Notes: generated from the sequence alone by a model not told the origin. A DNA stretch of 20,000 nt from an uncultured virus (IMG/VR IMGVR_UViG_3300042484_003076) (IMGVR_UViG_3300042484_003076); one strand, 5' to 3'; counted from the stretch's first letter, positions 1 through 17,303 are shown. Program-made: numbers and translations.

Positions 1-8
1 GACCTATA

Positions 9-29
9 GGTTTTGTCAATAGCAAAACC
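9..29 (-). promoter_or_regulatory. Putative leftward promoter (-35 TTGACA) inside an inverted repeat; -10 would fall just outside the window
   Basis: Plus-strand TGTCAA at 14-19; GGTTTTG (9-15) / CAAAACC (23-29) inverted repeat. Confidence 0.4.
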
Positions 30-48
30 AAACTATTTTTATAGACAC

Positions 49-77
49 AAAAAAAAGCCGTCGCGAGTGCAACGACT
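49..77 (-). terminator. Intrinsic terminator downstream of cas6
   Basis: Minus strand GTCGTTGC-ACTC-GCGACGGC (8-bp stem with G:U) followed by T8. Confidence 0.75.
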
Positions 78-136
78 GGGGGATGCGAAGTAGTCACTCT
101 ATTTTAAGCGATCGCTCCGCCGAGTGATTTTGTTAT

Positions 137-718
137 TTATTCAAAAAACCCGCATCCTAGATGTTTGCGACCTCCCAACCCTTTCTCTTGTAATATTAAA
201 GACTCGTTAGAGCGCAAATCTGAAAACATTACAGGGTATACAGCACACGGTTGCTTTTTAATAATTAGCTGCTCCTTGCGCCCTATTGTTGGCAGTGTAT
301 TAATATCAAACTTTGCTAGTTGCTTACCTAGCGACACCGCAAACCTAGTAAGATCGGGTTCACGATTGTTGTCGGTTTTAATTGATACCCAAGCCGCTAG
401 ATTCTCTTGAGATTTTAGCTCTGTGCCATTAACCAGCTTGAGTTTAATCAACTCTTTGCCTAAATGGATTTGACAATCAAAAAGCATCGTTAGCTCTGTA
501 ATTAAATCTTTGGAGCAACGTAGCTTTATGGTGTTTTGAGTTAAACGTAATGTGCGATCGTCAAAAATATTTGTGTTACTGATTCTACCGATCGCCCACT
601 CAGGGTTATCTTTGAGCTTAGGAGCTAATCCCGTCAAGGCAGAATAGAGACAGTAATGGTAGTTTCTAGGGATTAAAGAGCCTTCAATACTGAAAAGAAA
701 TTCTACGAAGTTACTCAC
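137..718 (-). CDS. cas6: Cas6 endoribonuclease, I-MYXAN/Cmx6-like
   Basis: C-terminal Gly-rich loop LQEKGLGGRKHLGCGFF and N-terminal F.I.G..IP.NYHY.LYSA pattern typical of Cmx6-type Cas6; GTG start with upstream AAGGA. Confidence 0.85.
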   Translation of the reverse strand: MSNFVEFLFSIEGSLIPRNYHYCLYSALTGLAPKLKDNPEWAIGRISNTNIFDDRTLRLTQNTIKLRCSKDLITELTMLFDCQIHLGKELIKLKLVNGTELKSQENLAAWVSIKTDNNREPDLTRFAVSLGKQLAKFDINTLPTIGRKEQLIIKKQPCAVYPVMFSDLRSNESLILQEKGLGGRKHLGCGFFE

Positions 719-760
719 GTTCTTTTATTCCTTTGGTATTTGTGTATTTCTTCAATTCCG

Positions 761-808
761 CATGACTTTCTTAGATCGTTCTTAGATCGTTCTTAGGGAT
801 ATCTCATG
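761..808. repeat. Short tandem 11-bp repeat array upstream of cas6
   Basis: TTCTTAGATCG at 768-778 and 779-789, degenerate TTCTTAGGGAT at 790-800, bracketed by CATGA (761) and TCATG (804-808). Confidence 0.7.
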
Positions 809-819
809 TATCGGCGCAC

Positions 820-849
820 AAAAAAGCCGTTGCCACTGTGACGGTTTTT
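820..849. terminator. Probable bidirectional terminator, sequence-related to the 49-77 hairpin
   Basis: AAAAAA-GCCGTTGC-CACT-GTGACGGT-TTTT; T-tracts available on both strands. Confidence 0.6.
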
Positions 850-868
850 GATAATGGTAAAATAATAG

Positions 869-1014
869 ACTAGCCGAAGAATTTAAGCGTAACGATTAAA
901 TACTAAATAAGCGTCGCCTACCTTTGTTGGAGAGAAGCAGACAGGCGATCGCGAAGTGTGTTGTAAAGAAAAGCTTCTCCGCTTTATTTTAGCACTGCCA
1001 AAAGGATAGCTAGC
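869..1014 (-). ncRNA. Candidate structured RNA or inserted element of unknown family
   Basis: Nested helices 1008-1014/869-875, 980-996/899-913, 939-948/914-923, plus 973-979/932-938. Non-Watson-Crick positions are G:U on the minus strand but A:C on the plus strand. Confidence 0.45.
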
Positions 1015-1074
1015 ATCTTTAAGGACTAATGCTTCAAAACCGTTAGGGGCGGCGCAAAGGTAGCAGTTATTCAT
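1015..1074 (-). pseudogene. csf1: 5' fragment of a csf1 (Cas8-like) gene; the ORF runs on to 883 through apparently unrelated sequence
   Basis: MNNCYLC...LVLKD resembles the CxxC N-terminus of Csf1 (from recall). Start overlaps the cupin stop, and csf1 is the one core type IV gene otherwise missing. Confidence 0.5.
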
Positions 1075-1426
1075 TGATAATCACCAATCTTTTCTCACTA
1101 TCTACGGGTTGATGTTTGTTGGCAACGGATAGCAAAAAAAGCCCGTCATTTCCAGCCCTTACCCTGTGAGGTTGCGAACCGTCTATAAAGTAGCAGGTTC
1201 CCTTGACGATTGGTTCGGTTTCAGCGCCGCAATCAATCCATCCAGACCCCTCTACTCCAAACAAAATATGATCACCCTCATGGGTATGAAGAGAAGTTTT
1301 TTCATTAGGTGCAAAATTCAACATATCAGCAGCAAAGCCGTCTTTTTTTACCAGTGGCAATCCGACAGCTTGACTGCCATACATCTGATACCAGTAATCA
1401 GCATCTAAATAATTTTTAATTTGCAT
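1067..1426 (-). CDS. Cupin-domain protein
   Basis: Cupin motifs H-T-H-x4-H...VEGSG and G.CYFIDGSQPHRV; overlaps both neighbouring genes. Confidence 0.85.
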   Translation of the reverse strand: MQIKNYLDADYWYQMYGSQAVGLPLVKKDGFAADMLNFAPNEKTSLHTHEGDHILFGVEGSGWIDCGAETEPIVKGTCYFIDGSQPHRVRAGNDGLFLLSVANKHQPVDSEKRLVIINE

Positions 1427-2084
1427 ACAATAATCCTTTTAGGTATTCAAAATATTCTGGCGAAATCTTGCGAAACTCTTCTAATCTTGTAGCTTGATAT
1501 TGATTGTTAGTATTTTTGCTGACATGATCTGTAGTTCGTTTTGCGCCTAAATCATAGGCTTTTAGGTATGGCAATTCATGAAAAAAGGTATAAGCCCAAA
1601 TATCGTTTTCACTCCAATTAAAAACAGGGCAAGCGCGATAATCTCCTTTTTTATATTGATAGATAGCACCATTTTTTAGCAAGGTTGCTTTACGTTTTGC
1701 GCTTTCTTCTATCCGCAATCCAACAAAAGCGACAGGATAATCAATCCATAATTTTTGTGACTTAACTTTGTTAGGGACATGATCGCCTTGCATCAAAATA
1801 GTTTGAATGTTTAGCCCAAATTTGTCCTGATATTTTGATTCTGTTTCAGCATAATTACTAATCATTTCTCTTTCATAATGTCCAAAAGAAATAGCCAAAA
1901 TATTAGGACAAATCGACTGCACCAAATGAAGCATTACGACTGAATCTTTACCCCATGACACCGCAACATAAGAAGGAGCGATCGCTAAAGCCTCTCGAAT
2001 AATCTCTTTAGCTTTCTCAACTTTGCGCTTAAATGTTGGCAGTGTCGCATGAGCTAAAAATGCATCGCGTTCTATTCCCTCCAT
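1416..2084 (-). CDS. cysH: CysH-like / PAPS reductase family protein (type IV-B accessory)
   Basis: PP-loop SWGKDS, VGLRIEES and PVFNWSENDIWAY motifs; directly after csf3. Confidence 0.88.
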   Translation of the reverse strand: MEGIERDAFLAHATLPTFKRKVEKAKEIIREALAIAPSYVAVSWGKDSVVMLHLVQSICPNILAISFGHYEREMISNYAETESKYQDKFGLNIQTILMQGDHVPNKVKSQKLWIDYPVAFVGLRIEESAKRKATLLKNGAIYQYKKGDYRACPVFNWSENDIWAYTFFHELPYLKAYDLGAKRTTDHVSKNTNNQYQATRLEEFRKISPEYFEYLKGLLYAN

Positions 2085-2758
2085 ACGTTATCCGTTGGCA
2101 TATAGCACATAGATTTATTCGCCGCTAACCATGTAGGAGGTCTCCACCCCCAGTTCATCATATTGATAGATTGAGGCTGTGGAATCATATTAATTGGCAT
2201 TGGTCGGGCTAAACTTTCACCTCTCCACAAATGCCAATCATGTTCAAAAGGAAGTACTTCCCATTTGTGTACCTGTCCGCAACCTTGCGATCGCTTCTTG
2301 CCAAGGTTCGTAACATTTAGAATTAGTTCGCTAATCTTGTCAGCATTGCCAATCGCAAACCAGTGTATAGTCTGCATTTCGCGATCATATCGTGGTAAAT
2401 CATAGGCTTTAAAATGCCCTTGCGAACTATCAACCTTAGCTTTCTTTTTACCCCAATCAAGGTGTAGTTCTTGCTTGTCCCATCGCTTACGGTAACGCTG
2501 AGTTTGTTGATGATTTTCGATGTAATGTGGTGAACTCACGGCCCAATACCACTCGCCTTTAAGCGTCTTCCGAGCGATCGGCATTTCATCAAAAATCAAG
2601 GGCAGATTCTTTTCAGCATCCGCAGCCGTTGGATTAGGCGTGATTAGCCCTAATTGGTCTAACAATTGATACTCAATCAGAGCATCGAAGCTAGGGGACC
2701 AGTCATCATAGGCAACTAGCGGCGTTGCCATGTGTGCGATTATTTGGAGGTTATCCAT
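2072..2758 (-). CDS. csf3: Type IV CRISPR-associated Csf3 (Cas5 group)
   Basis: G.FKAY.LP, WFAIG, LGKKRSQGCGQV..WEV Gly loop, RPMP and GWRPP.W motifs. Confidence 0.88.
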   Translation of the reverse strand: MDNLQIIAHMATPLVAYDDWSPSFDALIEYQLLDQLGLITPNPTAADAEKNLPLIFDEMPIARKTLKGEWYWAVSSPHYIENHQQTQRYRKRWDKQELHLDWGKKKAKVDSSQGHFKAYDLPRYDREMQTIHWFAIGNADKISELILNVTNLGKKRSQGCGQVHKWEVLPFEHDWHLWRGESLARPMPINMIPQPQSINMMNWGWRPPTWLAANKSMCYMPTDNVWRE

Positions 2759-3962
2759 TCAATAAACTCCGAATATCGCTCTTAGAATCAGCTAGAAAGC
2801 CTTTGTAATCTTCGAGATATTCTTTATACCTTGCGTGAGATTCAGTAGCGCGATCGCTTAATTTCTGAGCATGAGGTGTAATCGTCATAAACTCACCGCG
2901 ATCGCCCTCCGCAGTCTCAAACCAGAATTGCATAGAACATAGTCCGCAACCCGTTCCTGATTGACCGCCTAAGTATGGCGATTCAGCGAACTTGAGTAAT
3001 GCATCTGCAATAAATCCTTCTTCGATTCTGGTGACGTTTGCGCTCCAATAAGAGTACAAAGTAGCACCTGTTTGGAGTAGCCAATTACCCATAATCATCT
3101 GTTGGCTTTTCTCTTTTTCGGGCTTTGCTTTTTCGCTTTTACCTTTCTTGGTTTCAGGCTCCGAAACTATACCAAATAGATCGCATTGAGAAATCATCTT
3201 TTGAGGTTCTGGAGTAGCGCCGATCAAATGTTTTGCAAAGTTAGGATCGTGAAGTGAATCGCGCCTTGTCTTTTGGCTATAGGTAAGCCAATCGGAATAA
3301 TATCGAAGCTTCTCACCTAAGAATGGCATCCATTCATCAAGCAAAGCCTTGAGATCGTAATTGCTAACATCCAAAGGAGAACCATGATGTAGCCATTGAT
3401 TCACTCGTTGACTATGCTGTAAGTCTTTGCCATCAATAATCTGCTCCAGTGCTGGTATGACTTCGATTGGCAACGCAGGGGGGAACATCTGATAAAGATA
3501 CTTAGCGCTTTCTACACAAGCCAAATAAGCATCACCAACAGCGATTCGACCGTGCACCATTTGAGCATCGGATACACCAAACAATCCTTTAGGTTTGGCA
3601 GTTCCTAACACTGAAAGGCATGGCAAAAGTTGCCTAATCTTCTTATCCAAATCTAAGTCATTACCCGTGCCACCATCAATCGCGCCGCCACAAAATAGAG
3701 CGTGATGCATCGTTGGCGATACTTGCACACCAATCTGAGAGAGGAAAGAATCAATACCACAGCGCCTCAAAATACGATTGCGTAGTGAGTTACCAGAAAG
3801 ACAAAACACCTCAGAGGGATTTCCCTCTAAATCTGTCACTTTCATCGTTCGTAAATTGGTTTGATTGCCTACGGACTCACTGATATGAGACAAGGGCTGT
3901 AGCAATGTAATTTGCAGGTGTAGCTTGATATTATGGCGATCGTGTGGGTTGTAATTAAGCAT
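2751..3962 (-). CDS. csf2: Type IV CRISPR-associated Csf2 (Cas7 backbone)
   Basis: PLSH, SGNSLR..LRR, LFCGG, LP.LSVLG, GRIAVG, TRRD, QMI and C-terminal LGGQSGTGCG Gly loop. Confidence 0.9.
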   Translation of the reverse strand: MLNYNPHDRHNIKLHLQITLLQPLSHISESVGNQTNLRTMKVTDLEGNPSEVFCLSGNSLRNRILRRCGIDSFLSQIGVQVSPTMHHALFCGGAIDGGTGNDLDLDKKIRQLLPCLSVLGTAKPKGLFGVSDAQMVHGRIAVGDAYLACVESAKYLYQMFPPALPIEVIPALEQIIDGKDLQHSQRVNQWLHHGSPLDVSNYDLKALLDEWMPFLGEKLRYYSDWLTYSQKTRRDSLHDPNFAKHLIGATPEPQKMISQCDLFGIVSEPETKKGKSEKAKPEKEKSQQMIMGNWLLQTGATLYSYWSANVTRIEEGFIADALLKFAESPYLGGQSGTGCGLCSMQFWFETAEGDRGEFMTITPHAQKLSDRATESHARYKEYLEDYKGFLADSKSDIRSLLNG

Positions 3963-4485
3963 TATTAGCCTCTACATCTAGAGTATTTTCTGTTTCTTCT
4001 GGAATATTCAAAGCGCGATCGCTTTCAAAGCGAACACGACAAAAAGCAGTAATAATGTGCGGTTTTGATTTGCACAAACTGAGGATATGGTGATCGCTTA
4101 TCCCGTGCGTATATTTCAATTTGGCTAAAATGTCGTTCCATCCCAACCACCAAAGATCAATATTTTGATCGCAGTCTTTCTGTTGAATGTCTCCCATACT
4201 GCCATCGTCATTCACAGTAGCCCGTAAAACCACTTGTTTTGGCGCGATTATGCGAGTCCATTCTTTTGGGTTGAGGTGTGCAACGATTAGCTTTTTTGCC
4301 AGATTCTCAATGTAGTCGTCGATATTGCGAGAGGGAATAGCAGCATTTTGGATACTGCTTTGAAAATATTCCCATGTTTTTAAGCCCATGGCAGGACTTT
4401 TGCCCTTGTCTCTACAGCGAAAAACCCAATAACTAAGCGCACTGGCTAATGCTGTAGTCTTGTCCTCAGTTTCTATTCCATACAT
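3955..4485 (-). CDS. Probable type IV-B small subunit (Cas11-like)
   Basis: 176 aa helical-looking protein (W.YF..SI.NAA...IDDYIE.L.KKL) coupled to csf2, in the position cas11 occupies in IV-B loci. Confidence 0.6.
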   Translation of the reverse strand: MYGIETEDKTTALASALSYWVFRCRDKGKSPAMGLKTWEYFQSSIQNAAIPSRNIDDYIENLAKKLIVAHLNPKEWTRIIAPKQVVLRATVNDDGSMGDIQQKDCDQNIDLWWLGWNDILAKLKYTHGISDHHILSLCKSKPHIITAFCRVRFESDRALNIPEETENTLDVEANNA

Positions 4486-4513
4486 AAATATTTCTCGTAC
4501 ATCTACGGTATTT

Positions 4514-4810
4514 TTATTCTAGATCACAAACAGCATTCCAAGCCGCCAACTTAGCTTTACCGACAGACACACCACGCGCCCGCATCTCCTTTGGTGTTGC
4601 CTTACGTAGCTTAGGGATAGCGCGGTAATTACCCTCAACACACTCAATATGCAATCGCCTGTTACCGTATGCGATCGCGCCTTGTTTAAGAAGTAAGCGC
4701 AATGCGCTCGTATTGATTTGCGTACAGATTTCAATGTAGCGTAGAGAGTAAGAGCCGCGATGGGTGCTGAAAAAGCCGATGAGCTTGGCTCGTTCAATTT
4801 CTAGAGGCAT
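4514..4810 (-). CDS. Small basic hypothetical protein, possibly DNA-binding
   Basis: Start overlaps the stop of the kinase gene; Arg/Lys rich. Confidence 0.65.
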   Translation of the reverse strand: MPLEIERAKLIGFFSTHRGSYSLRYIEICTQINTSALRLLLKQGAIAYGNRRLHIECVEGNYRAIPKLRKATPKEMRARGVSVGKAKLAAWNAVCDLE

Positions 4811-5553
4811 TATAGTTCCTCCAAATAATCTTCAACAAATTTCATCCGATCGCCCAAATCCAAACAGTCCCTATGCAACTCTTTATAAGGTAAATTTAGA
4901 TGATTGAGCATCCCTAAAAGCTGAGTATGCAACTTGAATATTAACGGTTGATTAATCGCCGCTTTGTACTCACGCTCGACAAAAGGGATTGCAGGAGGAA
5001 TTAGTACAATCTTGTCAAAATACCGAGCCGTAACATTAAAGCAATTTTGCAAATAGTCCATAACCTCAGACTGCATACGCTCATCTAACTTGCCATTGCC
5101 AATGTCTGCGAGCAAGTAAGCAGCCATGTCCAATGGTGTGCGATCGCAGATAAAACTAGGTTCGTCAACTTCAAACCAGATGTCTTCAGCTTTAGCCAAA
5201 ATCTTTTGCTGCAAAAACAACCTAGTGCGGATATCCAATTTGTCGGACGGGTGGAAACTATGCTCCAGAAAAACACTGCTCGCATCAATAGGGATATATG
5301 GAATCCCTAGCTTTTGCGATAAGGCGATTGCCAGTGTGGTTTTGCCCGTGCCATGTGCACCGCAAAGTCCTATTCCTATACAGGACTTTGCGGTGCGATA
5401 ATCTGGATAAACAACCAATCTATCGTCTGGGATAAGCATTGCATAGCTAACCCTTCCACCAAACATAGCTTTCGCTTCGTCTTCAGTGTCAAATCCGCCA
5501 TAAGCAATGCAGTTTGAGCCTCGGTCTTCAAACATCGCGTACCATTTTTTCAT
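4810..5553 (-). CDS. P-loop NTPase / nucleotide-kinase-like (AAA_28-type) with a ~55 aa N-terminal extension
   Basis: Walker A GAHGTGKT and kinase-like ICDRTPLD motif; start placed at ATG 5553 after GGTGAAG. Confidence 0.75.
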   Translation of the reverse strand: MKKWYAMFEDRGSNCIAYGGFDTEDEAKAMFGGRVSYAMLIPDDRLVVYPDYRTAKSCIGIGLCGAHGTGKTTLAIALSQKLGIPYIPIDASSVFLEHSFHPSDKLDIRTRLFLQQKILAKAEDIWFEVDEPSFICDRTPLDMAAYLLADIGNGKLDERMQSEVMDYLQNCFNVTARYFDKIVLIPPAIPFVEREYKAAINQPLIFKLHTQLLGMLNHLNLPYKELHRDCLDLGDRMKFVEDYLEEL

Positions 5554-5770: not shown

Positions 5771-6003
5771 TATTTCAAATCCCCAACAATCATCTCAAAA
5801 ATGCTATGGGTGCAACAGCCCATAAATTTAAAATTATCTGCGGCGATCGGGTCAGTTGGATTACCGTCGGCATCAGTCCAAAACATTTGCGGTTTATATG
5901 GTTCGCCGTTTAGCGTGAACTCAATGCTTTCAATGTTCTGGCTATCCCAAAGAGCTTTTTGCGCTAGCCATGCTTGGATGTCTTCAATCTTGACGATCAT
6001 CAT
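5770..6003 (-). CDS. Hypothetical protein
   Basis: ATGA/TAATG coupling with neighbours. Confidence 0.65.
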   Translation of the reverse strand: MMIVKIEDIQAWLAQKALWDSQNIESIEFTLNGEPYKPQMFWTDADGNPTDPIAADNFKFMGCCTHSIFEMIVGDLK

Positions 6004-6242
6004 TCTTTACGCTCCTTATTCCTTAATCCAGCTTCTCTAAACGTGCTTAGAACTACTGCCGCAGTCCAAACGCATGTAAACACTGCAATAAATAGCAATC
6101 CCTTACCTAATGGCTGCCATACGAACCAGAAAAAACCCGCGATCGGTATCAGAAAAACAAAAGTTAAAGCGAAACAACCGCCAAAAGTTGATGCTGTTGC
6201 TTGTAGTTCTTCCTTACTGTCAGACTCAAATAATCTAGCCAT
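6000..6242 (-). CDS. Small membrane protein, two TM helices
   Basis: Two hydrophobic stretches; coupled to the dcd stop. Confidence 0.7.
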   Translation of the reverse strand: MARLFESDSKEELQATASTFGGCFALTFVFLIPIAGFFWFVWQPLGKGLLFIAVFTCVWTAAVVLSTFREAGLRNKERKE

Positions 6243-6772
6243 TATCCTTTACTCTCCTGTGTGTCTAAATCACCGTTGTATCTTCCAGTCTCTGAGTAAT
6301 CATGCCTTGGGTAAGCCGTCTCAGCAAAAACAATTTGACCGATTCGCATCATTGGATAAATAGGTTGCCAAGCCCAAAGACGATGATTTAGTAATTCTAA
6401 AGTCAGTTTTGAGTTGTTAAACCCACCATCAATCCATACTGCCAAAACGTGCCCCCATCCTGATCGCCCTCTACTTGACTTAAGCCTAAACTCTGCTGAG
6501 TAATTACTCGGCATATTGAAAGTCTCGTAAGTACAAGTCAAAATAAAACTTAGTGGCGATACCCAAAACGGGTTTGATTCTGAGTATTTGGTTAAGTCAT
6601 GAGTAGTAAACTCTTGACCTGTTAGACATCGTTTAAGCCAGTTGTTCTCAGTTTTCAGCGTGTAGCCTATCCGCACATCGAGTGATTGTGGGTTAAGCAT
6701 TGCTTTGTCAAATGGCACGATAACGCCTTTTTCTTCGCAAAGCTTTTCGATTTCGTGGTCAACTAACGTCAT
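6242..6772 (-). CDS. dcd: dCTP deaminase (trimeric dUTPase superfamily)
   Basis: NPQSLDVRIG, KSSRGRSG, WIDGGF, LTLEL, RIGQIVF and GRY motifs; ATG at 6772. Confidence 0.88.
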   Translation of the reverse strand: MTLVDHEIEKLCEEKGVIVPFDKAMLNPQSLDVRIGYTLKTENNWLKRCLTGQEFTTHDLTKYSESNPFWVSPLSFILTCTYETFNMPSNYSAEFRLKSSRGRSGWGHVLAVWIDGGFNNSKLTLELLNHRLWAWQPIYPMMRIGQIVFAETAYPRHDYSETGRYNGDLDTQESKG

Positions 6773-6920
6773 TTTCAAATAACCTCAAAATCCTAGAACT
6801 AGCACCCATCTTCTGAGCTTTTGCGCGAGAAGCTTCTACCCTATACCGATCTTCCATCTGCTGTGATGAAATGGCGATCGGGATGCGCTGTTTTTCTGGC
6901 TGTTTTTCTGTGTCACTCAT
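6759..6920 (-). CDS. 53 aa hypothetical protein (not in ORF track): MSDTEKQPEKQRIP...
   Basis: Hand-translated ORF that fills the gap and overlaps both neighbours. Confidence 0.6.
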   Translation of the reverse strand: MSDTEKQPEKQRIPIAISSQQMEDRYRVEASRAKAQKMGASSRILRLFENDVS

Positions 6921-7176
6921 GGTTATTTTTACTTATAAATTCTTGAACAAGTACCAATCGATCTTCATTGTTTAACAATGGGTTAGCGGCGATCGCCATT
7001 TCTATGGCTCTTAATTCTTCAAAAGAATATTTTTTGGTAGCGCTAAGCTCACATTCAAAACCACTCAAAAGCTTTTGCCATTCAGGAATAATGACAATTT
7101 TGCCGACTTCTTCATTGGCTTTTTCTAGGTACAACCTATTGTTTATACTAACTTCAATCTGACTTGTAGCCATCAT
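6913..7176 (-). CDS. Hypothetical protein
   Basis: Start reassigned to MMATSQ after a GGAG RBS. Confidence 0.65.
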   Translation of the reverse strand: MMATSQIEVSINNRLYLEKANEEVGKIVIIPEWQKLLSGFECELSATKKYSFEELRAIEMAIAANPLLNNEDRLVLVQEFISKNNHE

Positions 7177-7519
7177 TATTCTCCATACAGTGAATAAATA
7201 GATAACACATGGCTTTAGCTGCTGTATCAGAGTACTTTTCGCCTTTAGGATTAGAAGCAAAATAGCCAATATCACCATTATCTGCTACGCCTTTTTGCAA
7301 AACATAAGTCAACCTATGATCATCAAAAGCTCTAGTGATTGCGTCTAGGGATGTGTCATATTTTGGCACTGGAATATATTGCTTACTGCCATCAAGAGGG
7401 TTTCTAACGGTTGATCTGTCGTTAATTCCACAGAGTCCATCTAAAACAAATTCTTGATAATCACCAGTAAACCCGCAAAGCTCAGCGACTTTCTTTCTGA
7501 TTGAGATCGTGTTAGTCAT
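7154..7519 (-). CDS. Phage protein, possibly ABA-sandwich-domain-like
   Basis: VAE.CG...P.Y.TSLDA...TAA.A.C pattern recalled from that family. Confidence 0.5.
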   Translation of the reverse strand: MTNTISIRKKVAELCGFTGDYQEFVLDGLCGINDRSTVRNPLDGSKQYIPVPKYDTSLDAITRAFDDHRLTYVLQKGVADNGDIGYFASNPKGEKYSDTAAKAMCYLFIHCMENNDGYKSD

Positions 7520-7522
7520 GCT

Positions 7523-7759
7523 CTAAAGCCTCCTAATCTTCTGTAAATCATCAGCATTGCAATTAAGCACATTGCAAAGCGCGTCAATTAGGTCAAATTC
7601 CAAGAACCTGTAACACCCCTGCTCTAACTTTTGGATTTTGCGTAGATTGCAGCTATCCATACTTGCAGCATTAGCTTTTAGCCAAGCATCGCACTGCTTA
7701 GCTAATTCTTTTTGAGTTAGCGATCGCGCTTTGCGTAATCGCTTGAGATTTAGTTGCAT
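7523..7759 (-). CDS. XRE/Cro-like HTH transcriptional regulator
   Basis: LKRLRKARSLTQKELA...IQKLEQG...LCNVLNC..DDL; ATG at 7759. Confidence 0.8.
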   Translation of the reverse strand: MQLNLKRLRKARSLTQKELAKQCDAWLKANAASMDSCNLRKIQKLEQGCYRFLEFDLIDALCNVLNCNADDLQKIRRL

Positions 7760-7983
7760 GACTTTAGCTCTTGGTATTTGCGCTCTAATTCTGGTAGTTC
7801 GCATTCGAGATCCCCGTTGACGGTTAACTCGTACCATTTACCAGTAGATTTAGAATAATGGTAAGAATATTGTTCTAACTGTTTATTCCAACGAATACTA
7901 AGATTAGATTCAGTGCGGACATAAACTTCACCTTCATGCGCCAAAAGAGAAGTAGTAATTGTATTTTCTCTAATTATTTCCAC
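7750..7983 (-). CDS. Hypothetical protein, first gene of the leftward operon
   Basis: GAGGT RBS, GTG start, overlaps the HTH gene. Confidence 0.6.
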   Translation of the reverse strand: MEIIRENTITTSLLAHEGEVYVRTESNLSIRWNKQLEQYSYHYSKSTGKWYELTVNGDLECELPELERKYQELKSCN

Positions 7984-8022
7984 ATTGTTACCTCATCAAC
8001 TACTAATCACTATACTATCTAC

Positions 8023-8139
8023 TACCCCCTAAAAGGATACTTTTTACTTATATAATTAGATGAGAAGCAGTGACAATACTAATCATTTGTGTATTGTCTA
8101 TCCTTCAAAAGGGTAGTATCTTTAGTAAACCGAAGGGTA
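8023..8139. promoter_or_regulatory. Divergent promoter region with 17-bp palindromic operators
   Basis: TAYCC-N7-GGRTA at 8023-8039 and 8099-8115, half site ending at 8139. Back-to-back GACAATAC (8072-8079) / GTATTGTC (8091-8098). Rightward TTGTCT-17-TATCTT. Confidence 0.6.
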
Positions 8140-8191
8140 TCTACACACAAGCTAAGATGAATTTATGACTATTGTTGAGGTTGCTTAACCC

Positions 8192-8353
8192 ATGACACAA
8201 ATCCAATATTGCGAAAAATACTGGATTTCTCGCAATATCGCAATAGCGAGTATTCCAGTATTTCATTATGGCAATAAGGTAAGCCGAAAATGCCTATTTG
8301 TAATTGAATCGCAACCAATTGTAGGAATGACTGAGGTTTATTGTGATGACTAA
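8192..8353 (+). CDS. 53 aa hypothetical protein (not in ORF track): MTQIQYCEKYWIS...
   Basis: GAGG upstream; stop overlaps the next start. Confidence 0.55.
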   Translation: MTQIQYCEKYWISRNIAIASIPVFHYGNKVSRKCLFVIESQPIVGMTEVYCDD

Positions 8354-8600
8354 ACCCGTAAACCACTACGCATCAACAGCGCCGATCCCTGATTGGCTTG
8401 AGGCTGAGATTTTAGAGCTATCAAAAGATGTTGATGAGATCGCCTTATTAGTGACCGACTTAGGGGGATCGTTATGGCTTCTTAGTTGGTTGAGTCATCC
8501 ATCAGCAAAAATATCTGAACAAGCTAACAAATGGCTTAAAACACAATCACGCGACACATTCAAAGCGCTACCCATTGGAGTAGCGATGGAGTTGATTTAG
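8346..8600 (+). CDS. Hypothetical protein
   Basis: GAGG RBS; followed by a terminator. Confidence 0.6.
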   Translation: MTKPVNHYASTAPIPDWLEAEILELSKDVDEIALLVTDLGGSLWLLSWLSHPSAKISEQANKWLKTQSRDTFKALPIGVAMELI

Positions 8601-9502: not shown

Positions 9503-10099
9503 TTAAGCATAAATTAAACCTTGCACATCCCGATATTTAAGAACATGCTGCCAAGCGCCGATCTGAATCCATTCGATAGAAGTATTTTTGAATAGCTGTG
9601 GAGACTCATCACATTGCTTGCATGGAGTCGTAGGATTGACGGTGCATTTAAGATATTGCGAATCCGCAAAGTAAGGACATTGTTTATAAACTTCAATACC
9701 CTCACTTAGGAAGTAATTCTCTAAAGCCTTGTAAAATAAAGGATGCAAACAACCTTGAAATGAGCCGCCATATATCCGCAAAGCTATCCCTAGATTATTT
9801 GCGGCGACAGTGTAACCGATTAGGTTGAAGCAAACATTAAAGCCAGTTCCCATCTCTTTGATTGTAAATCCCTTGCAAACAACTGGTAAGTTCTTGGGGT
9901 AAAAAGTTAAGTTGTCAAGAAACATCTGATTTCTAGGGAATATATCACGACAGATTATTTCAAGGTCAAAACCTAAATTCTGCATCTTTTGGCAAATATG
10001 TTTAGAGTTTGATTTACTCTCTAACACCAATTGATGCGTGGCTTCTAGCTTTTTATCAGTGCAGTGAAAGCGATCGCCTAACCAATATATTTCGATCAT
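9503..10099 (-). CDS. Hypothetical protein with C-terminal Cys cluster (DUF6464-like)
   Basis: CPYF..S.YLKC.VNP..PC..C; start reassigned to the ATGA overlap at 10099. Confidence 0.65.
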   Translation of the reverse strand: MIEIYWLGDRFHCTDKKLEATHQLVLESKSNSKHICQKMQNLGFDLEIICRDIFPRNQMFLDNLTFYPKNLPVVCKGFTIKEMGTGFNVCFNLIGYTVAANNLGIALRIYGGSFQGCLHPLFYKALENYFLSEGIEVYKQCPYFADSQYLKCTVNPTTPCKQCDESPQLFKNTSIEWIQIGAWQHVLKYRDVQGLIYA

Positions 10100-10311
10100 T
10101 TTGCTAACCTCTGGAAATAGTGGCAAGTGTATCTGTTACCAGTCTTAATCACAACGTTACCGCCTTTCTTGCGGCATAGCCTAGAAGCCTCTTGATTGCT
10201 TCTAGCTGTGATTTTACCAAGGTCAGAGAAGCCATTGCCAACGGTGCGGTTAACTTGTGCGATCGCAGGGGTGGAAATAGAAAGCAATGCGAGGATTAGT
10301 AGATATTTCAT
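10096..10311 (-). CDS. Small secreted protein
   Basis: Signal peptide MKYLLILALLSISTPAIA; two Cys. Confidence 0.7.
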   Translation of the reverse strand: MKYLLILALLSISTPAIAQVNRTVGNGFSDLGKITARSNQEASRLCRKKGGNVVIKTGNRYTCHYFQRLAK

Positions 10312-10347
10312 GGTTTAATATTTGGTAGAAATGCAGTTATTCGGGTT

Positions 10348-10379
10348 TCAGCGATTGCTTGTCATGGGGCAATCGCTGA
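10348..10379. other. Intergenic hairpin after the methylase (terminator or processing site)
   Basis: TCAGCGATTGC / GCAATCGCTGA 11-bp stem. Confidence 0.55.
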
Positions 10380-10382
10380 TTT

Positions 10383-11414
10383 TTATTGAATGATCGCTTG
10401 CAAAATCTTTTGATACATCAGGGGTGGTACTGAGTTACCGATAATTTTGCCATCTAACGACTTTTTGCCACTCCACTGATAGTTATCAGGAAACGACTGT
10501 AAACGAGCTAAGCAAGCAATGTCTAGAGCTACGATACGAGCATTTAGCAATGCATTAGCTCTGTGATAATGCCCATCTTGACCCATCGCTCGTAATGTCC
10601 AACATGGCTCATCGGCAGCGCGGGTTTGGAGTTCGCGATCGCTTCTTGCTCCTGTGTTTTCGATTAGGATTGCCTTTAATGGGTGCGCTGAATTGGTTGA
10701 TGTTAATGTAAAAGATGGCGATTTTCTATCTACTGCATAAACATTTCTACCAGCTTCAAAATTATTATATTGTTGCGATAAAAATAGATGATCACTAATC
10801 TCATCTGGCAATGCTTTCAACTGCCAATCTGCCAGCTTGCTATCAGGTAAATCATGAACACAATCCGCGATCGCCTCATACCATCCGATATGCTTTTCTT
10901 TTGGCGGTAATGATGGGATAAAGCCGTCTTTAACAGCGATTAGGATTAAGCGGCGGCGACTTTGAGGCACTCCAAAATCAGCAGCGTTAAGTACCTGCCA
11001 ATTACAGAAATATCCAAGCTTATGAAGCATCTCAACAATCAAATGGAACGATTTGGATTTGCGGTAAGCTTCCACATTTTCAAGAGTAAAATGCTTAGGC
11101 TGTAGCACTTGGATAAATTCTGCAACCTTTCGGGCGCAATCAATATCAAGCTGAGCTTCGCCTTTGTTAGCATTAGCTGTGCTGAATTGCTTACAGACTG
11201 GGCTAGCGTGAAGGATATCAGGCTTTTCAAAGCGATACGGATCGCAATCAAGGATATTGGCAACATGCATTTTGCCGTTTATATTTGCCTTGTGAACTTC
11301 AGCGATCGCAGGATCGTATTCCACTGATTCACATGGTTCTAGTCCTGCGGCGATCGCTCCTAAATCTGCACCGCCCCCGCCTGCAAACAATGCTGTAAAT
11401 GTTTTTTTACTCAT
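10383..11414 (-). CDS. dcm: Orphan DNA (cytosine-5) methyltransferase
   Basis: Motifs I LFAGGGG, IV SPVC, VI ENV, VIII PQSRRR, IX RLQSFP, X GNSV; ATGA-coupled start at 11414. Confidence 0.9.
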   Translation of the reverse strand: MSKKTFTALFAGGGGADLGAIAAGLEPCESVEYDPAIAEVHKANINGKMHVANILDCDPYRFEKPDILHASPVCKQFSTANANKGEAQLDIDCARKVAEFIQVLQPKHFTLENVEAYRKSKSFHLIVEMLHKLGYFCNWQVLNAADFGVPQSRRRLILIAVKDGFIPSLPPKEKHIGWYEAIADCVHDLPDSKLADWQLKALPDEISDHLFLSQQYNNFEAGRNVYAVDRKSPSFTLTSTNSAHPLKAILIENTGARSDRELQTRAADEPCWTLRAMGQDGHYHRANALLNARIVALDIACLARLQSFPDNYQWSGKKSLDGKIIGNSVPPLMYQKILQAIIQ

Positions 11415-11967: not shown

Positions 11968-12062
11968 TTGCTTCTTTTGCCAATAGTGTAGCCAAGGGTA
12001 AAACAAGAAATACATAAAGACGCTAGACAACAAATCACAGTAAAAATAGATACTCCGATCAT
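11964..12062 (-). CDS. 32 aa single-TM peptide (not in ORF track): MIGVSIFTVICCLASLCISCFTLGYTIGKRSK
   Basis: GAGGAG RBS; ATGA overlap downstream. Confidence 0.55.
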   Translation of the reverse strand: MIGVSIFTVICCLASLCISCFTLGYTIGKRSK

Positions 12063-12064
12063 AA

Positions 12065-12337
12065 TTAACTCCTCGCAACCGCAATCTTAATAGCGAGGTA
12101 AGCCAAGAAATCAGTTTGATCGCATGGTTCCCAAAGACCAAATATTAGCCAATCTTCAAAAGAGATTAAATCATCTCTCTCAATATCATGATCGCCAAAT
12201 TTGTAAAGAAATTGGAAGTCTATAATAATTTCTTCCAGCTTTTCTATAGTGCGATCCTTGTAGTTGCGAATAAAGCTAGAGACGGGGTGGGATTCGTGTT
12301 CGTAGCGCTCTATAACTTGTTGTAGTAATTCTTGCAT
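12065..12337 (-). CDS. Hypothetical protein
   Basis: ORF track; fits the operon. Confidence 0.65.
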   Translation of the reverse strand: MQELLQQVIERYEHESHPVSSFIRNYKDRTIEKLEEIIIDFQFLYKFGDHDIERDDLISFEDWLIFGLWEPCDQTDFLAYLAIKIAVARS

Positions 12338-12344
12338 AATGTTT

Positions 12345-12363
12345 AGGCGGCATTGCGCCGCCT
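12345..12363. other. GC-rich intergenic hairpin after bet
   Basis: AGGCGGC-ATTGC-GCCGCCT. Confidence 0.45.
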
Positions 12364-12374
12364 GTGAGTGTGGG

Positions 12375-13292
12375 TTAGAAATCGTCAGCGTCTATAGGAT
12401 TGCGGCTTTCATCTTCCAGCGTTGGCTCTACTTCATCAGGTTCAGCTTGTGCAGATTTCACGGGTTGAGGGGCAACTTCCTGATTAAACTTCTTAGTCAA
12501 ATCACCCAAAATATTAGTGATGATTGAGAGCTGATCTTGACTTGGCTCGTACTTGCTAGAGCTTTTCGCAACCCATGCTATAAGCTTTTCCAGATCCTCA
12601 ATGGTTGCGCACTTGTTTACACCCTTCTCAAAGATTGCCCATAGCTTGTCATCCCATCCCGTCGCGATTTCTGGCTGTGGGGTGCTGACTGGTTGAGTCT
12701 GTGGACTGACATTGCTAGCTTGATCCATCTCTTCAGATGCATAAAGCCCAGCGGTTTGCTCTGGAAATGCTTTGCGGAGCGCTAAAGCCTCGGAACATTT
12801 ACCGATCATAATATCGGGCATTTTTTCCCATAGTCCTGAAAGCTTGCCTTTGAAGTCTTGCTTGTAAGCGTCAAAACGAGCGACGGCTGTGAATGGTTGC
12901 CCACAACCTTTACGATATACAACAGTTTTAGCAGCGCTTGGCGGTGTTGATTTTAACCACACTTCCAACCATTTGCCATCTTCTCCACACCAAAAAGTTG
13001 TAGAGCCGTCATAGTATCCAGAATTAGCAGCGCGTTTGCGAAGTCCATCAATCGATACTTGGATCGACATTTTTGGCTCTTTGCGCTGTGTCTCTGGGTT
13101 CCAAGCCTCTCTAGAGATTGCGTAAATCTCACGGGTGAAAGGACTTAAACCAGTCTGTTTGCAAACTTCAATGAAATAATCAAGTTCTGTGTCAGAGCAT
13201 TTAGGCGCAATCTGTTGCTTGAGAACTTTCAACTGCTCAGGATTGAAATGCTGAGTGATGCTTGATTGAGATGTAGTTGTGATAGCAGACAT
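12375..13292 (-). CDS. bet: Phage recombination protein Bet (RecT family ssDNA-annealing protein)
   Basis: GLSPF.REIY, SIDGLR..A and W.KMP..M..KCSE..ALRKAFP motifs; acidic tail ending DDF. Confidence 0.9.
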   Translation of the reverse strand: MSAITTTSQSSITQHFNPEQLKVLKQQIAPKCSDTELDYFIEVCKQTGLSPFTREIYAISREAWNPETQRKEPKMSIQVSIDGLRKRAANSGYYDGSTTFWCGEDGKWLEVWLKSTPPSAAKTVVYRKGCGQPFTAVARFDAYKQDFKGKLSGLWEKMPDIMIGKCSEALALRKAFPEQTAGLYASEEMDQASNVSPQTQPVSTPQPEIATGWDDKLWAIFEKGVNKCATIEDLEKLIAWVAKSSSKYEPSQDQLSIITNILGDLTKKFNQEVAPQPVKSAQAEPDEVEPTLEDESRNPIDADDF

Positions 13293-13297
13293 TTGTT

Positions 13298-13405
13298 TTA
13301 CCTGTGTGGATTAATGTTAATAGCGATCGCCCAAATAATAGGCGATAAGAATGCGACGCAAAGCCAGTAAAGCATTTGCTGATGGAGATAGTCGTATGGA
13401 GTCAT
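13298..13405 (-). CDS. 35 aa single-TM peptide (not in ORF track): MTPYDYLHQQMLYWLCVAFLSPIIWAIAININPHR
   Basis: ATGA overlap with the upstream ORF; GGAG RBS. Confidence 0.5.
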   Translation of the reverse strand: MTPYDYLHQQMLYWLCVAFLSPIIWAIAININPHR

Positions 13406-13557
13406 ACTTCTATCTCCGTTAGCTCATCATGTGTGACTGGTCTTTCAACCCTATTACCACAGCGGATCAAATAATCGTATCCAATTACGCTAGGGAGTGT
13501 ATCAACGATTGTGGCGATCGCGCCTTGGTAAAGGACTTGCTGCGATGGTTGGTACAT
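13402..13557 (-). CDS. 51 aa hypothetical protein (not in ORF track): MYQPSQQVLYQGAIATIV...
   Basis: TAATG coupling upstream, ATGA coupling downstream. Confidence 0.6.
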   Translation of the reverse strand: MYQPSQQVLYQGAIATIVDTLPSVIGYDYLIRCGNRVERPVTHDELTEIEV

Positions 13558-14159
13558 TAGATCAGCGCTCCGCAACCGTAACGACCTGACAAAGCAAAAG
13601 CGTCATCGCCAAATGTGTCGCGTGGTGAGTAGGTAGAGGCGAAATCATCGACTGTGTATGCACCTTGTGATGCAATGCGTTCTTGTCGGCGTTGTTCCCA
13701 TGGGTCAACTGGTAGCAATTCTTGATAAGCTTGCTCAGCTACGGTTTCGCAGATAGTGACGACAGGGGGAAGTAAATCGCTGATTGCTTGCTCGGATTCA
13801 GTGGCGATCGCATCATCGGATTTAGCTTTGACAATCTCTAGGGAGATTTCATCTAGCACTTGCCAAGCATTTGCTTTTGTGGTCGTGTAGTAATCACCAT
13901 GATTATTACCAATCTGTTCACCTAGTTCAAACTTTGGAGGGAAAAGCGTGATTTCTTTCCCCTTGATCTCTATCTCTACACCCAAGGAACCAGCGCGATC
14001 GCTAATCTCTTGTAGTGAGCGGGATTTTGGGGCGCGTGGTTTAGTGATACCAGCGCGTTTGTTGGATTCTTTCACCATTGCATGAGCGTCTCTGGCTGCG
14101 ATTGTAGATGTGCTGCGGCGCATATCGTAACCGCCAATGATTTGAAATGTGTCTGACAT
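13557..14159 (-). CDS. Hypothetical protein, first gene of the bet-dcm operon
   Basis: 200 aa ORF directly downstream of a near-consensus promoter. Confidence 0.75.
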   Translation of the reverse strand: MSDTFQIIGGYDMRRSTSTIAARDAHAMVKESNKRAGITKPRAPKSRSLQEISDRAGSLGVEIEIKGKEITLFPPKFELGEQIGNNHGDYYTTTKANAWQVLDEISLEIVKAKSDDAIATESEQAISDLLPPVVTICETVAEQAYQELLPVDPWEQRRQERIASQGAYTVDDFASTYSPRDTFGDDAFALSGRYGCGALI

Positions 14160-14198
14160 GATGCGTTGCCTTTGCTTTACTTGCTTGAATCTTTTAGT

Positions 14199-14227
14199 AC
14201 TATAGATCGAAATAAGTACTATGTCAA
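14199..14227 (-). promoter_or_regulatory. Sigma70-type leftward promoter
   Basis: TTGACA-17-TATAGT with two AGTACTAT boxes overlapping it. Confidence 0.7.
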
Positions 14228-14251
14228 TACTTTTAAAATATTAATTTGGTA

Positions 14252-14289
14252 TTGACTTGATATCAATATATGCTATATTGATATCAAGT
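14252..14289 (+). promoter_or_regulatory. Rightward promoter overlapped by a 35-bp palindromic operator
   Basis: TTGACT-16-TATATT with extended -10 TG; ACTTGATATCAATATA-TGC-TATATTGATATCAAGT. Confidence 0.7.
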
Positions 14290-14307
14290 AGTTTACACAA
14301 AGCATTT

Positions 14308-14463
14308 ATGGCAAAAGTATCAATGCCATTGTATTTAGAGGAAGAGACTCGGAAAGATCTTGAGTCTTTTGCAAAATCCCAGAAAAGATCAATGAGTGCA
14401 TCGATTGAGATTTTGATTATTGAAGCAGTCAAAAAAGCTAAAAAGCAAGGAGTGATTGAATGA
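14308..14463 (+). CDS. Ribbon-helix-helix (Arc/CopG-like) regulator
   Basis: KVSMPLYL.EE....L...AK..KRSMS..I..LI pattern; ATG at 14308. Confidence 0.8.
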   Translation: MAKVSMPLYLEEETRKDLESFAKSQKRSMSASIEILIIEAVKKAKKQGVIE

Positions 14464-15188
14464 ACTTACAACTATTCTCATTTAACGATCATTTAGTTCG
14501 TGTCATTTCTGTAAATGGCGATCCTTGGTTTGTCGCTCAAGACGTTTGTTCTATTTTGGATTTAGGGAATGTAAGCCAAGCTTGCAAACCCTTGAAAGCT
14601 AGAGAAAAGGATCTATACAATAATGACACCCTTGGCGGTAAGCAAGATGTAGTAATCATTTCAGAGTCTGGCTTATACCGTTTGACCATGAAATCTCGTA
14701 AACCTCAAGCTGAGCCGTTCCAAGATTGGGTATGTGAAGAAATCCTTCCATCAATCCGCAAAACTGGTAAATATGAGGTAGTTCCATCTCAATCAGGAAT
14801 TAAAACATCTATTCCAGTAATTGCATCTAGAGAGCTAGCACTAGAAACCGCCCGATCGGTATCTGAAATCAAAGATTTATTAGCAGATACTGATCCGCGT
14901 TTATGCCAATTGCTTGTAGATGTAGCTATTAATGATGCAGTCAACAGCATTAAGGCGATCACCCCTGCTAGTGAAACTCAATGGATGGGAGTAGCGGAAA
15001 TTGCTGAATATTTGAAACTACCAATCACGCTGCAAAACCGTACCTCTCTAGGTAAATTTGTTAAAGCTGCATGTGGCAATATTGGCAAGCAAGAATCAAG
15101 AATTTGCAATGGTCGCATGATGCTTATTTGGTGCTATCCGTTCCCAAATAGTGAAGTCGAAAAAGCTGTTAAGAACTTTTTTAAATAA
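14460..15188 (+). CDS. BRO-N domain phage antirepressor-like protein
   Basis: F.F....VRV...NG.PWFVA.DVC..L; ISESGLY.L...SRKP.A..F..WV..E.LPSIRKTG.Y. Confidence 0.9.
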   Translation: MNLQLFSFNDHLVRVISVNGDPWFVAQDVCSILDLGNVSQACKPLKAREKDLYNNDTLGGKQDVVIISESGLYRLTMKSRKPQAEPFQDWVCEEILPSIRKTGKYEVVPSQSGIKTSIPVIASRELALETARSVSEIKDLLADTDPRLCQLLVDVAINDAVNSIKAITPASETQWMGVAEIAEYLKLPITLQNRTSLGKFVKAACGNIGKQESRICNGRMMLIWCYPFPNSEVEKAVKNFFK

Positions 15189-15201
15189 CAGGAGTAACAT
15201 C

Positions 15202-15645: not shown

Positions 15646-15857
15646 CCCAACAAATCAAGATCGCCTATCTACTCCAGCGATTTATATCAGATCGCAGCGA
15701 GTGGAAAACACTACGCACCAACAAAAAAGAATCTGATGCAATCAAATTACTAAAAAGGATGAGATTGAGACATCCTGAATTACAGTATCGGGTTGCGATT
15801 GAAGAAGAGACTACTACGATTACTGTTGTAAAGGTTGTTAGAGGTATTGAATTATGA
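15642..15857 (+). CDS. Hypothetical protein
   Basis: GTGA overlap; GAGG RBS. Confidence 0.65.
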   Translation: MTQQIKIAYLLQRFISDRSEWKTLRTNKKESDAIKLLKRMRLRHPELQYRVAIEEETTTITVVKVVRGIEL

Positions 15858-17256: not shown

Positions 17257-17303
17257 AAAAAAGAACTACTTGAATTATTCAAGTAGTTCTTTTTTTTATT
17301 TTA
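17249..17303. terminator. Bidirectional terminator
   Basis: Perfect inverted repeat with 27-bp arms (A8-GAACTACTTGAA...TTCAAGTAGTTC-T8) between convergent stops. Confidence 0.85.

Follow-up and report, generated by a model that had tools for sequence, protein, structure and literature searches.

A type IV-B CRISPR effector module with a Cas6 in the place of csf1 in an uncultured tailed lake cyanophage

[quoted passage not shown] The 2025 classification lists it without a mechanism, and the RNA that its complexes bind and the role of its CysH protein are put as open questions in PMC8175902. The present analysis concerns a 20,000-nucleotide stretch of DNA from an uncultured virus (IMGVR_UViG_3300042484_003076), hereafter the window, in which a set of cas genes occupies positions 137 to 4,485. 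The window almost certainly carries the main operon of a type IV-B effector module of a tailed lake cyanophage of about 75-80 kb, lying among early DNA-metabolism genes and with a type I-B-like Cas6 occupying the place that csf1 has in sister phages.

Several described systems resemble this locus. The type IV-B complex of Mycobacterium sp. JS623 (PDB 7JHY) has the same proteins, including a PP-loop CysH without catalytic cysteine, and likewise no array, adaptation genes, helicase or nuclease; it resides on an actinobacterial plasmid, whereas the window module resides on a lytic-type tailed cyanophage, belongs to a family in which csf1 stands last and to a clade in which csf1 has moved out of the operon, and adds its own Cas6 and a cupin partner for CysH. 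Type IV-B loci with a Cas6 have been described as rare exceptions, with "only 12 instances" (Pinilla-Redondo et al. 2020, PMC7038947); according to that source they share the type IV-B core, the Cas6 and the lack of an array with the window, whereas in the present family cas6 occurs in 22 of 63 loci and has been gained repeatedly. Subtype IV-A shares the type IV backbone and a dedicated Cas6, but the window lacks DinG and an array, contains cas11 and cysH, and encodes a Cas6 of the Cmx6 or type I-B kind and not of the Csf5 kind. Fuxivirus, a virus of Bathyarchaeia, likewise carries a type IV-B module with a CysH-like protein, for which counter-defence or inter-element conflict was proposed; its module has a two-repeat mini-array and the text of its paper mentions no cas6, whereas the window has a Cas6 and no repeat (PMC10541130). 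Virus-borne type IV-B in archaeal viruses (PMC10541130) and type IV-B with Cas6 (PMC7038947) are thus already known from these sources. A literature search returned no paper combining "cyanophage" with "IV-B", and none of the matches listed for cyanobacteria, type IV-B, phage and CRISPR describes such a module in its title or abstract. As far as we can tell, the new elements are a cas6-bearing clade with a split-off csf1, the repeated capture of host-type Cas6, and the strict association of one CysH subfamily with a partner that is either an SbzM-like cupin or Coq4-like.

The features of the operon are collected in Table 1. Adjacent minus-strand genes from cas11 through the csf1 stump overlap by 8-13 bases, with the cupin gene overlapping cysH by 11 bases and translationally coupled to it, and cas6 is set off from the stump by a gap of 164 bases. 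The open reading frames (ORFs) and their scores against profile hidden Markov models (HMMs) reproduce the gene list of the first-pass annotation, namely cas11, csf2, csf3, a cysH-like gene, a cupin, a csf1 fragment and cas6. The Csf2 family profile matches 7jhy_e (a type IV-B Csf2) as well as a Csf2 of type IV-A and a Cas7 of type IV-C. Against their NCBIfam equivalog models, csf2 (TIGR03115, 26.5 bits) and csf3 (TIGR03116, 2.2e-16, 60.2 bits) score far under the cut-offs of 130 and 140, and both proteins are therefore divergent members. Repeat scans found no CRISPR-like repeats in the window, and PADLOC on its 52 ORFs found no further cas genes, adaptation genes, Cas10/HD, or DinG or RecD helicase, in agreement with the first-pass statement that array, cas1/2 and dinG are absent; an Rfam scan of the window gave nothing meaningful. 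The type IV-B-like assignment is upheld by the protein set, comprising Csf2, Csf3, a Cas11-like subunit and an adjacent cysH-like PP-loop gene, together with the lack of an array and of helicase and adaptation genes. The usual type IV-B lack of Cas6 does not apply here, and the type IV-A traits (DinG, Csf5-type Cas6, array) are absent from the window, with cas11 and cysH present instead. The 98-amino-acid (aa) ORF upstream of cas11 has no match in Pfam, NCBIfam, PHROG or PADLOC, and its position is kept within the window clade at 78-84% identity.

Table 1. Features of the type IV-B operon and its surroundings in the window, with pairwise dN/dS (ratio of nonsynonymous to synonymous substitution rates) of the window against six clade members, and positions of Coq4-like genes in related loci
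Feature	Position	Strand	Evidence or remark	dN/dS
dCTP deaminase	6242-6778	-	upstream of the cas operon, conserved with it in the clade	
AAA_28 / thymidylate-kinase-like P-loop protein, 254 aa	4810-5574	-	conserved with the operon in the clade	
98-aa ORF, possibly an operon member	4514..4810	-	29-base gap to cas11	
cas11, type IV small subunit, 176 aa	3955..4485	-	PADLOC typeIV_Cas11 1.9e-12	0.11-0.26
csf2, type IV Cas7, 403 aa	2751..3962	-	PADLOC Csf2_0_IV 9.2e-44	0.05-0.08
csf3, type IV Cas5, 228 aa	2072..2758	-	PADLOC Csf3_0_IV 2.9e-46	0.12-0.21
cysH-like PP-loop enzyme, SWGKDS subfamily, 222 aa	1416..2084	-	Pfam PAPS_reduct 7.2e-17	0.11-0.26 (same allele)
cupin metalloprotein, 119 aa	1067..1426	-	Pfam Cupin_2, 34.2 bits (cut-off 27.2)	0.12-0.15
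csf1 5' stump, 63-codon ORF	883..1074	-	first 20-40 codons match the Csf1 N-terminus	
variable junction upstream of cas6	719..882	.	2.5 copies of an 11-base tandem repeat; weak hairpin, then T-run	
cas6, Cmx6 / type I-B-like, 193 aa, GTG start	137..718	-	TIGR02807 and PF09559	0.12-0.40
terminator-like hairpin and T-run 3' of cas6	56..77	-	9-pair stem, 5 G-C pairs	
Coq4-like genes in the cupin's place, related loci	L010:9740-10093; L014:9928-10518; L015:9492-10268; L029:10138-10905; L033:9797-10573; L050:9506-10198; L052:11214-11906			

The genome surrounding the module is that of a tailed phage. Two IMG/VR records can be aligned with the window in blocks that are 88-99% identical, namely G003 (80,032 bp, direct terminal repeats, rated 100% complete) and G002 (73,403 bp, rated 95% complete). 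Because G003 has virion genes (portal, large terminase, tape-measure and major head protein, besides a DnaB-like helicase) and terminal repeats, the element is a tailed phage and not a plasmid, and the claim that the module is phage-borne stands. Neither the DNA nor the Csf2 protein has a match among GenBank phages. The remaining window genes encode RecT, an anti-repressor, a cytosine methyltransferase, the dCTP deaminase and helix-turn-helix proteins. The window contains GGCGATCGC motifs, which are typical of cyanobacteria, and some Csf2 relatives are labelled Pseudanabaena or Cyanobacteriota by their sources. Seventeen lake-water metagenome runs, with the possible source run excluded, contain half or more of the words sampled from positions 1-5000 of the window. 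The cyanobacterial genome G316 carries an array of at least 29 repeats adjoining type III-B Cmr genes and Csx1, and one of its spacers (L100 ~1501-1537; G316:C11:24708-24744) is 92% identical over 37 nucleotides (nt) to the window recT at 12739-12775, which points to a host lineage and to CRISPR pressure on the phage. The repeat of this array has no copy in any phage locus.

Relatives of Csf2 were found in 60 viral loci and two short contigs of cyanobacterial metagenome-assembled genomes, giving 63 loci with the window, and ORFs called in all 63 were searched with iterated local HMMs. The full set of cas11, csf2, csf3 and cysH occurs in 53 loci, the remainder mostly being cut by contig ends, and cas11 is found in 60. 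A full csf1 is present in 43 loci and lies downstream of csf2 on the same strand in 34 of these, typically as the final gene (cas11-csf2-csf3-cysH-csf1); it stands upstream of csf2 on the same strand in only five. Three of these five, L064, L066 and L067, are the most distant members and have the order csf1-cas11-csf2-csf3-cysH. The "permuted order" named in the first-pass annotation is therefore a family trait, csf1 coming last being usual in these phages. Of the 49 loci that extend 4 kb or more past csf2, 29 have csf1 only, 10 have csf1 and cas6, nine have cas6 only and one has neither. Eight of the nine cas6-only loci belong to the window's own clade, in which Csf2 is at least 89% identical to that of the window. 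Two loci, L035 and L059, retain a 42-aa cas6 remnant just upstream of csf1.

The csf1 fragment in the window is a true remnant. It matches Csf1 at 66% identity over 21 aa (L024, L027) and at 38% over 42 aa (L035), with no csf1 similarity downstream of its first 20-40 codons and no family match of the stump itself; full-length Csf1 proteins of relatives match PADLOC Csf1_0_IV at 1.6e-23 and 8e-28. The stump is absent from L016, L018, L028 and L013. An intact Csf1 of 239 aa (Csf1_0_IV 1.2e-26; PADLOC, 94 ORFs) is encoded in G003 at 9,995-10,714 on the minus strand, with the module at 57,707-62,359 on the plus strand, and G002 has csf1 at 66,273-66,962 and the module at 11,989-15,978. In the sister phage G006 csf1 lies in the operon, and its product shares 86-88% identity with the distal Csf1 proteins, a divergence similar to that of Csf2 (90-92%). 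The G006 genome has the order A (a 311-aa gene), B (dcd ... cas11-csf2-csf3-cysH) and C (csf1, a 251-aa gene, ... radical SAM ... terminase). A gene-by-gene comparison places A next to C in G003, with the whole of block B, which equals the window region, located elsewhere, and the breakpoint at the 5' end of csf1 explains the stump. In these complete and near-complete relatives csf1 has been separated from the operon by genome rearrangement and not lost. A variant lacking Csf1 altogether was rejected on the ground of the intact distal csf1 in both G003 and G002. The part of the first-pass annotation that recognised a csf1-like fragment is thus retained, but the module is split, since an intact csf1 persists elsewhere in both relatives, and by analogy a distal csf1 is inferred in the window's own genome. 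The PADLOC scan of G003, which covers ORFs of at least 100 aa, found no cas gene beyond the module and the distal csf1, and no DinG or RecD helicase, Cas10/HD or adaptation gene.

The 251-aa gene that follows the distal csf1 was considered as a module part and rejected, since within the family loci it is next to csf1 nowhere but in G006/L022. In G003 the minus-strand block that holds the distal csf1 also encodes, at 5,902-8,518 (L070:5902-7146 and L070:7874-8518), a radical SAM protein and a Mom-like protein for DNA modification (PF25680, 8.8e-47); in the sister phage G006 this block comes directly after the type IV-B operon.

The csf1 stump and the variable junction beside it could also be taken as the marks of a decaying, non-functional type IV-B remnant left after csf1 loss, a reading that is highly improbable. 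The module genes are under purifying selection, with dN/dS of 0.05-0.40 in all of them (Table 1), the intact distal csf1 is kept in relatives at the identity to G006 given above, and the phage type recurs in the 17 further lake metagenome runs. In addition, two metatranscriptome runs of one study contain contigs that match portions of cas6, csf2 and cas11 at 95-99% identity, which hints weakly at expression, as DNA may have been carried over into these libraries.

The Cas6 assignment is supported by profile and structure. The protein scores 103.5 bits against TIGR02807 (cas6_cmx6), over the curated cut-off of 98.85, and 1.3e-32 against PF09559. Its model, with a predicted local distance difference test (pLDDT) score of 93, superposes over its full length on 8fcj_B with a template modelling (TM) score of 0.87 at 26% identity (sequence E 1.1e-8), showing the complete double fold of the RNA recognition motif (RRM) and the C-terminal glycine-rich loop. 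The matching chain is the Cas6 of a cyanobacterial type I-B CRISPR-associated transposon (CAST) Cascade (8FCJ chain B), which shares the fold; the window Cas6 does not lie within a type I-B system. Residues R67, Q177, G180, G182 and G188 are invariant across 26 phage and host Cas6 proteins and are all kept in the window protein.

Of the 401 cyanobacterial genomes sampled, 19 encode a Cmx6-type Cas6. A tree built from 21 phage and 17 host sequences shows the phage proteins scattered in several groups among the host ones; five label changes are required, at least three of them forced by well-supported branches, and a single origin is seen in 0 of 200 bootstrap trees. The window-clade Cas6 sits on a long branch and its exact neighbour is unsure; the "host" cas6 locus nearest in the tree, on a 2.1-kb contig, adjoins an array. 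The tree indicates that a host-type Cas6 has been captured at least three times by the phage module. A cas6 of at least 150 aa is present in 22 of the 63 loci, and in L034, L037-43 and L053 the gene is embedded in the operon with overlapping frames, in the csf2/csf3 or the csf3/cysH interval. In four relatives (L016, L018, L028 and L116) it lies directly 3' of the cupin gene and overlaps it. The repeated capture of Cas6 by array-less modules, often in mid-operon, argues that Cas6 serves the module. The first-pass annotation had tied its proposal beforehand to the recurrence of cas6 and the cupin in homologous loci, and both do recur, cas6 at the frequency given here and the cupin in seven csf modules.

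The region just upstream of cas6 in the window is variable and bears on a different account of the gene. The junction takes six forms in the window clade: cupin-stump-cas6, Coq4-like-stump-cas6, cupin-cas6, two further Coq4-like forms and cysH-cas6. The record G001 and a contig of run X19 lack bases 774-836 (63 bases), L016-type phages and one contig from run X11 lack bases 706-1062 (357 bases), and these deletion variants are polymorphic across metagenome and RNA-library contigs. Such a polymorphic junction, the 164-base variable gap, the gene's own GTG start, a terminator-like site that follows only cas6, and the lack of an array to serve would all suit a Cas6 that counters host defence on its own, for instance through binding or faulty processing of host pre-crRNA (precursor of the CRISPR RNA, crRNA), and that merely came to lie at the rearrangement junction next to the Csf operon. 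This account is unlikely, as cas6 is operon-embedded and overlapping in the loci named above, overlaps the cupin end in four others, and all its independent gains are in or beside csf modules.

The array-less state extends beyond the window. Neither G003, G002 nor G006 contains a run of at least three copies of any 11-mer at 45-100-base spacing or a CRISPR-like pair, and repeated hairpin-like 20-mers are absent from G003 and G002 at any distance. The claim of an array-less module thus holds in the complete G003 and the near-complete G002 as well. The first-pass annotation had also named a canonical array plus an intact csf1 directly to the left as the finding that would speak against it; repeat scans of the first 18 kb of G001 revealed no array in the 10.7 kb left of cas6, and that region has no intact csf1 either.

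Arrays are present in four distant family loci (L040, L041, L051 and L052; Csf2 about 43% identical), all without cas6. L040 and L041 are near-identical, the latter with 10 full and 14 full repeats of two types, and the array of L052 has seven repeats. The number of loci with arrays (four) and with cas6 (22 of 63) makes their lack of co-occurrence non-significant (p ~0.15), the more so as two of the four are near-identical. The 26 spacers of these arrays had no targets among the family loci, scans of viral contigs matched the source contigs only, and one of the repeats was not found in the 401 cyanobacterial genomes. An ordinary crRNA-guided type IV system with its array elsewhere in the phage genome, outside the window, is very improbable. 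It could draw on the four array-bearing relatives, on the repeats of L051 that abut the csf1 stop, and on a published viral type IV-B locus with a mini-array (PMC10541130); nevertheless, no array lies in G003, in G002 or in the 10.7 kb left of cas6 in G001, and the arrays of the relatives adjoin Cas12-like genes in loci without cas6.

The surroundings of the arrays are as follows. L051:10301-10388 contains two 37-nt repeats 14 bases apart, a few bases past the csf1 stop and 92% identical to the repeat of G409. G409 encodes a 587-aa Cas12f/Cas12u2-like protein (E 3e-166, L130:8650-10413) beside an array of about 39 37-nt repeats (L130:10384-13157). G410, a complete phage of 95,304 bp, encodes a 622-aa Cas12f/Cas12u2-like protein (E 5e-58, L128:15683-17551) with arrays of 37-nt repeats at L128:11480-11930 and L128:17860-18340. 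These arrays look like parts of a type V-like system carried by the phages, some 3-5 kb away from the type IV-B operon. The distant arrays were considered as evidence of type IV-B guides and rejected, Cas12f/Cas12u-like genes flanking them in both records examined.

The enzymatic arm of the module consists of the CysH-like protein and its small partner. Across 21 CysH-like sequences S43, G45, K46, D47, S48, R124, E127 and R131 are invariant and no cysteine is; the nearest solved structures are CysD and PAPS reductases. CasCysH has likewise been described as having a PP-loop without the catalytic cysteine (PMC8175902). A small metal protein follows CysH of the SWGKDS subfamily in 15 of 19 cases, seven times a cupin and eight times a Coq4-like protein (PF05019), or in 16 with L015, where the Coq4-like ORF overlaps cysH; with the SGGKDS subfamily a metal partner is found in 0 of 34, all of these counts being phylogenetically non-independent. 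The Coq4-like genes, which take the cupin's place at the positions of Table 1, match PF05019 at E 2e-6 to 6e-4, some below the cut-off; Coq4 is an oxidative decarboxylase. CysH alleles of the window clade do not differ in their N-terminal third, and the remainder diverges along with the partner. A search seeded with the cupin returned nine viral loci, in seven of which the cupin lies directly 3' of the cysH-like gene in a csf module. The cupin had been presented as an addition linked to cas6; it pairs instead with one CysH subfamily and alternates with the Coq4-like gene.

The cupin has H47, H49, H53 and H87 invariant in 15 sequences and a model with pLDDT 91.9. Its best fold and profile match is SbzM (9ug7), with 32% identity, a root-mean-square deviation of 1.1 over 105 columns and a profile E of 8e-17; the cupin ranked next has 4e-9. 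According to PMC6331615, SbzM acts on L-cysteine as a cupin dioxygenase, oxidising and decarboxylating it. The metal-binding histidines are kept; SbzM proteins (9UG7) have 173-215 aa, whereas the window cupin has 119 aa and its gene is coupled, within a cas operon, to that of a CysH-like protein. A putative adenylating CysH-like enzyme combined with a putative oxidative metal enzyme offers a concrete biochemical lead, and the likeness to SbzM suggests a concrete substrate to try, cysteine or thiols.

Two further loci touch these enzymes. The cupin search also revealed a divergent module, L119:2888-6049, with the order csf2-cysH-cupin-csf3 and a csf2 match of only E 1e-8. A second PAPS-reductase-like protein of 296 aa is encoded in G003 at 68,168-69,058 (L073:8168-9058; phrog_424 3.3e-26, PADLOC SspD 2.5e-12), near replication genes and outside the cas module.

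The enzymatic arm lends itself to a reading in which the ribonucleoprotein is guide-independent and takes part in phage nucleic-acid or nucleotide modification. The Csf filament would form on non-CRISPR RNA, CysH and its metal partner would perform an adenylation-dependent step on RNA, DNA or a small molecule, and Cas6 would only trim a scaffold transcript of phage or host. This reading, the main rival of the one favoured here and possible though somewhat unlikely, gains from the heterogeneous non-CRISPR RNA bound by the JS623 complex (PMC8175902), from the invariant PP-loop of a CysH without catalytic cysteine, and from a metal partner that is exclusive to SWGKDS CysH and has the L-cysteine dioxygenase SbzM as the cupin's relative. 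The gene neighbourhood is consistent with it too, as dCTP deaminase, the kinase-like AAA_28 protein, methyltransferase and RecT surround the module, csf1 of G006 continues into the radical SAM block, and the same block of G003 has the Mom-like gene. However, it leaves at least three gains of a host-type crRNA-processing Cas6 unexplained, no conserved candidate scaffold RNA or hairpin was found, and closeness to modification genes may merely mirror phage genome organisation.

The reading favoured here gives Cas6 an RNA made in trans, since a Cas6 is present with no array or repeat of its own and therefore most likely acts on such RNA. Cas11, Csf2 and Csf3 should form an RNA-wrapping Cas7/Cas11 filament with a Cas5 cap. 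Cas6 would cut repeat-type hairpin RNA, most plausibly host pre-crRNA, and the Csf proteins would assemble on its product, with Csf1 coming from the distal gene. In this way the phage would mop up host guides or put them to its own use, for counter-defence or for the exclusion of rival elements, and CysH and the cupin would work on whatever is bound by the complex. The supply of host repeat RNA to the Csf complex is put forward tentatively, as quite possible though short of probable; we infer every biochemical step of it, for hosts that are themselves uncultured or inferred, and the first-pass ideas of a complex loaded by its own Cas6 and of captured host crRNA are likewise hypothetical. The reading is favoured by the repeated gain of a crRNA-processing enzyme of host type, by the presence of Cmx6-type Cas6 in cyanobacteria, with one such locus beside an array, and by the CRISPR pressure on the phage. 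That type IV-B may scavenge crRNA or serve as a sponge for it has been proposed in print (PMC8175902, PMC7038947).

Several observations weigh against host guides as the substrate. The JS623 type IV-B complex was reported to bind heterogeneous RNA and not the co-expressed type I-E crRNA (PMC8175902). G316, the sole candidate host with a spacer against the phage, has no PF09559 Cas6, and its array adjoins type III-B genes. The window Cas6 is only 27-33% identical to host Cas6 proteins from the 401 genomes. A search for an RNA substrate by Rfam and repeated hairpins gave no candidate, and the variable junction before cas6 means that the gene may be a separate unit. The distal csf1 that would supply Csf1 is known from relatives only. 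The arrays of distant relatives adjoin Cas12-like genes in both records examined and therefore do not demonstrate guide use by type IV-B.

A more specific form of the trans-RNA reading, which is speculative and quite unlikely, joins host-stolen guides to a chemical warhead. The repeatedly captured Cas6 would divert pre-crRNA, and CysH with its oxidative SbzM-like or Coq4-like metal partner would produce an adenylate adduct derived from sulfur or cysteine, or attach one, at the nucleic acid that is bound. If this form were true, host immunity would become a phage tool and the link between CysH and type IV-B would be explained. The repeated capture of host-type Cas6 by modules without arrays gives the clearest indication yet that type IV-B in phages has a use for a defined RNA made by Cas6. 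The family provides natural experiments in close genomes, with or without their own Cas6, with csf1 in the operon or distant, with two CysH subfamilies, and in a few cases with arrays and Cas12-like genes.

Minor observations concern insertions in the operon and the rest of the window. One close relative encodes a 125-aa GIY-YIG protein between csf2 and csf3 (L014:8199-8576; G003 59,428-59,805), and L022, L024 and L029 have insert ORFs of 181-187 aa at the same site; these ORFs look like homing-endonuclease-type insertions. A palindrome at window positions 17229-17349 has weak, sub-threshold Rfam matches on both strands (plastid 3' untranslated region hairpin families, E ~0.008) and is probably a bidirectional terminator between convergent genes.

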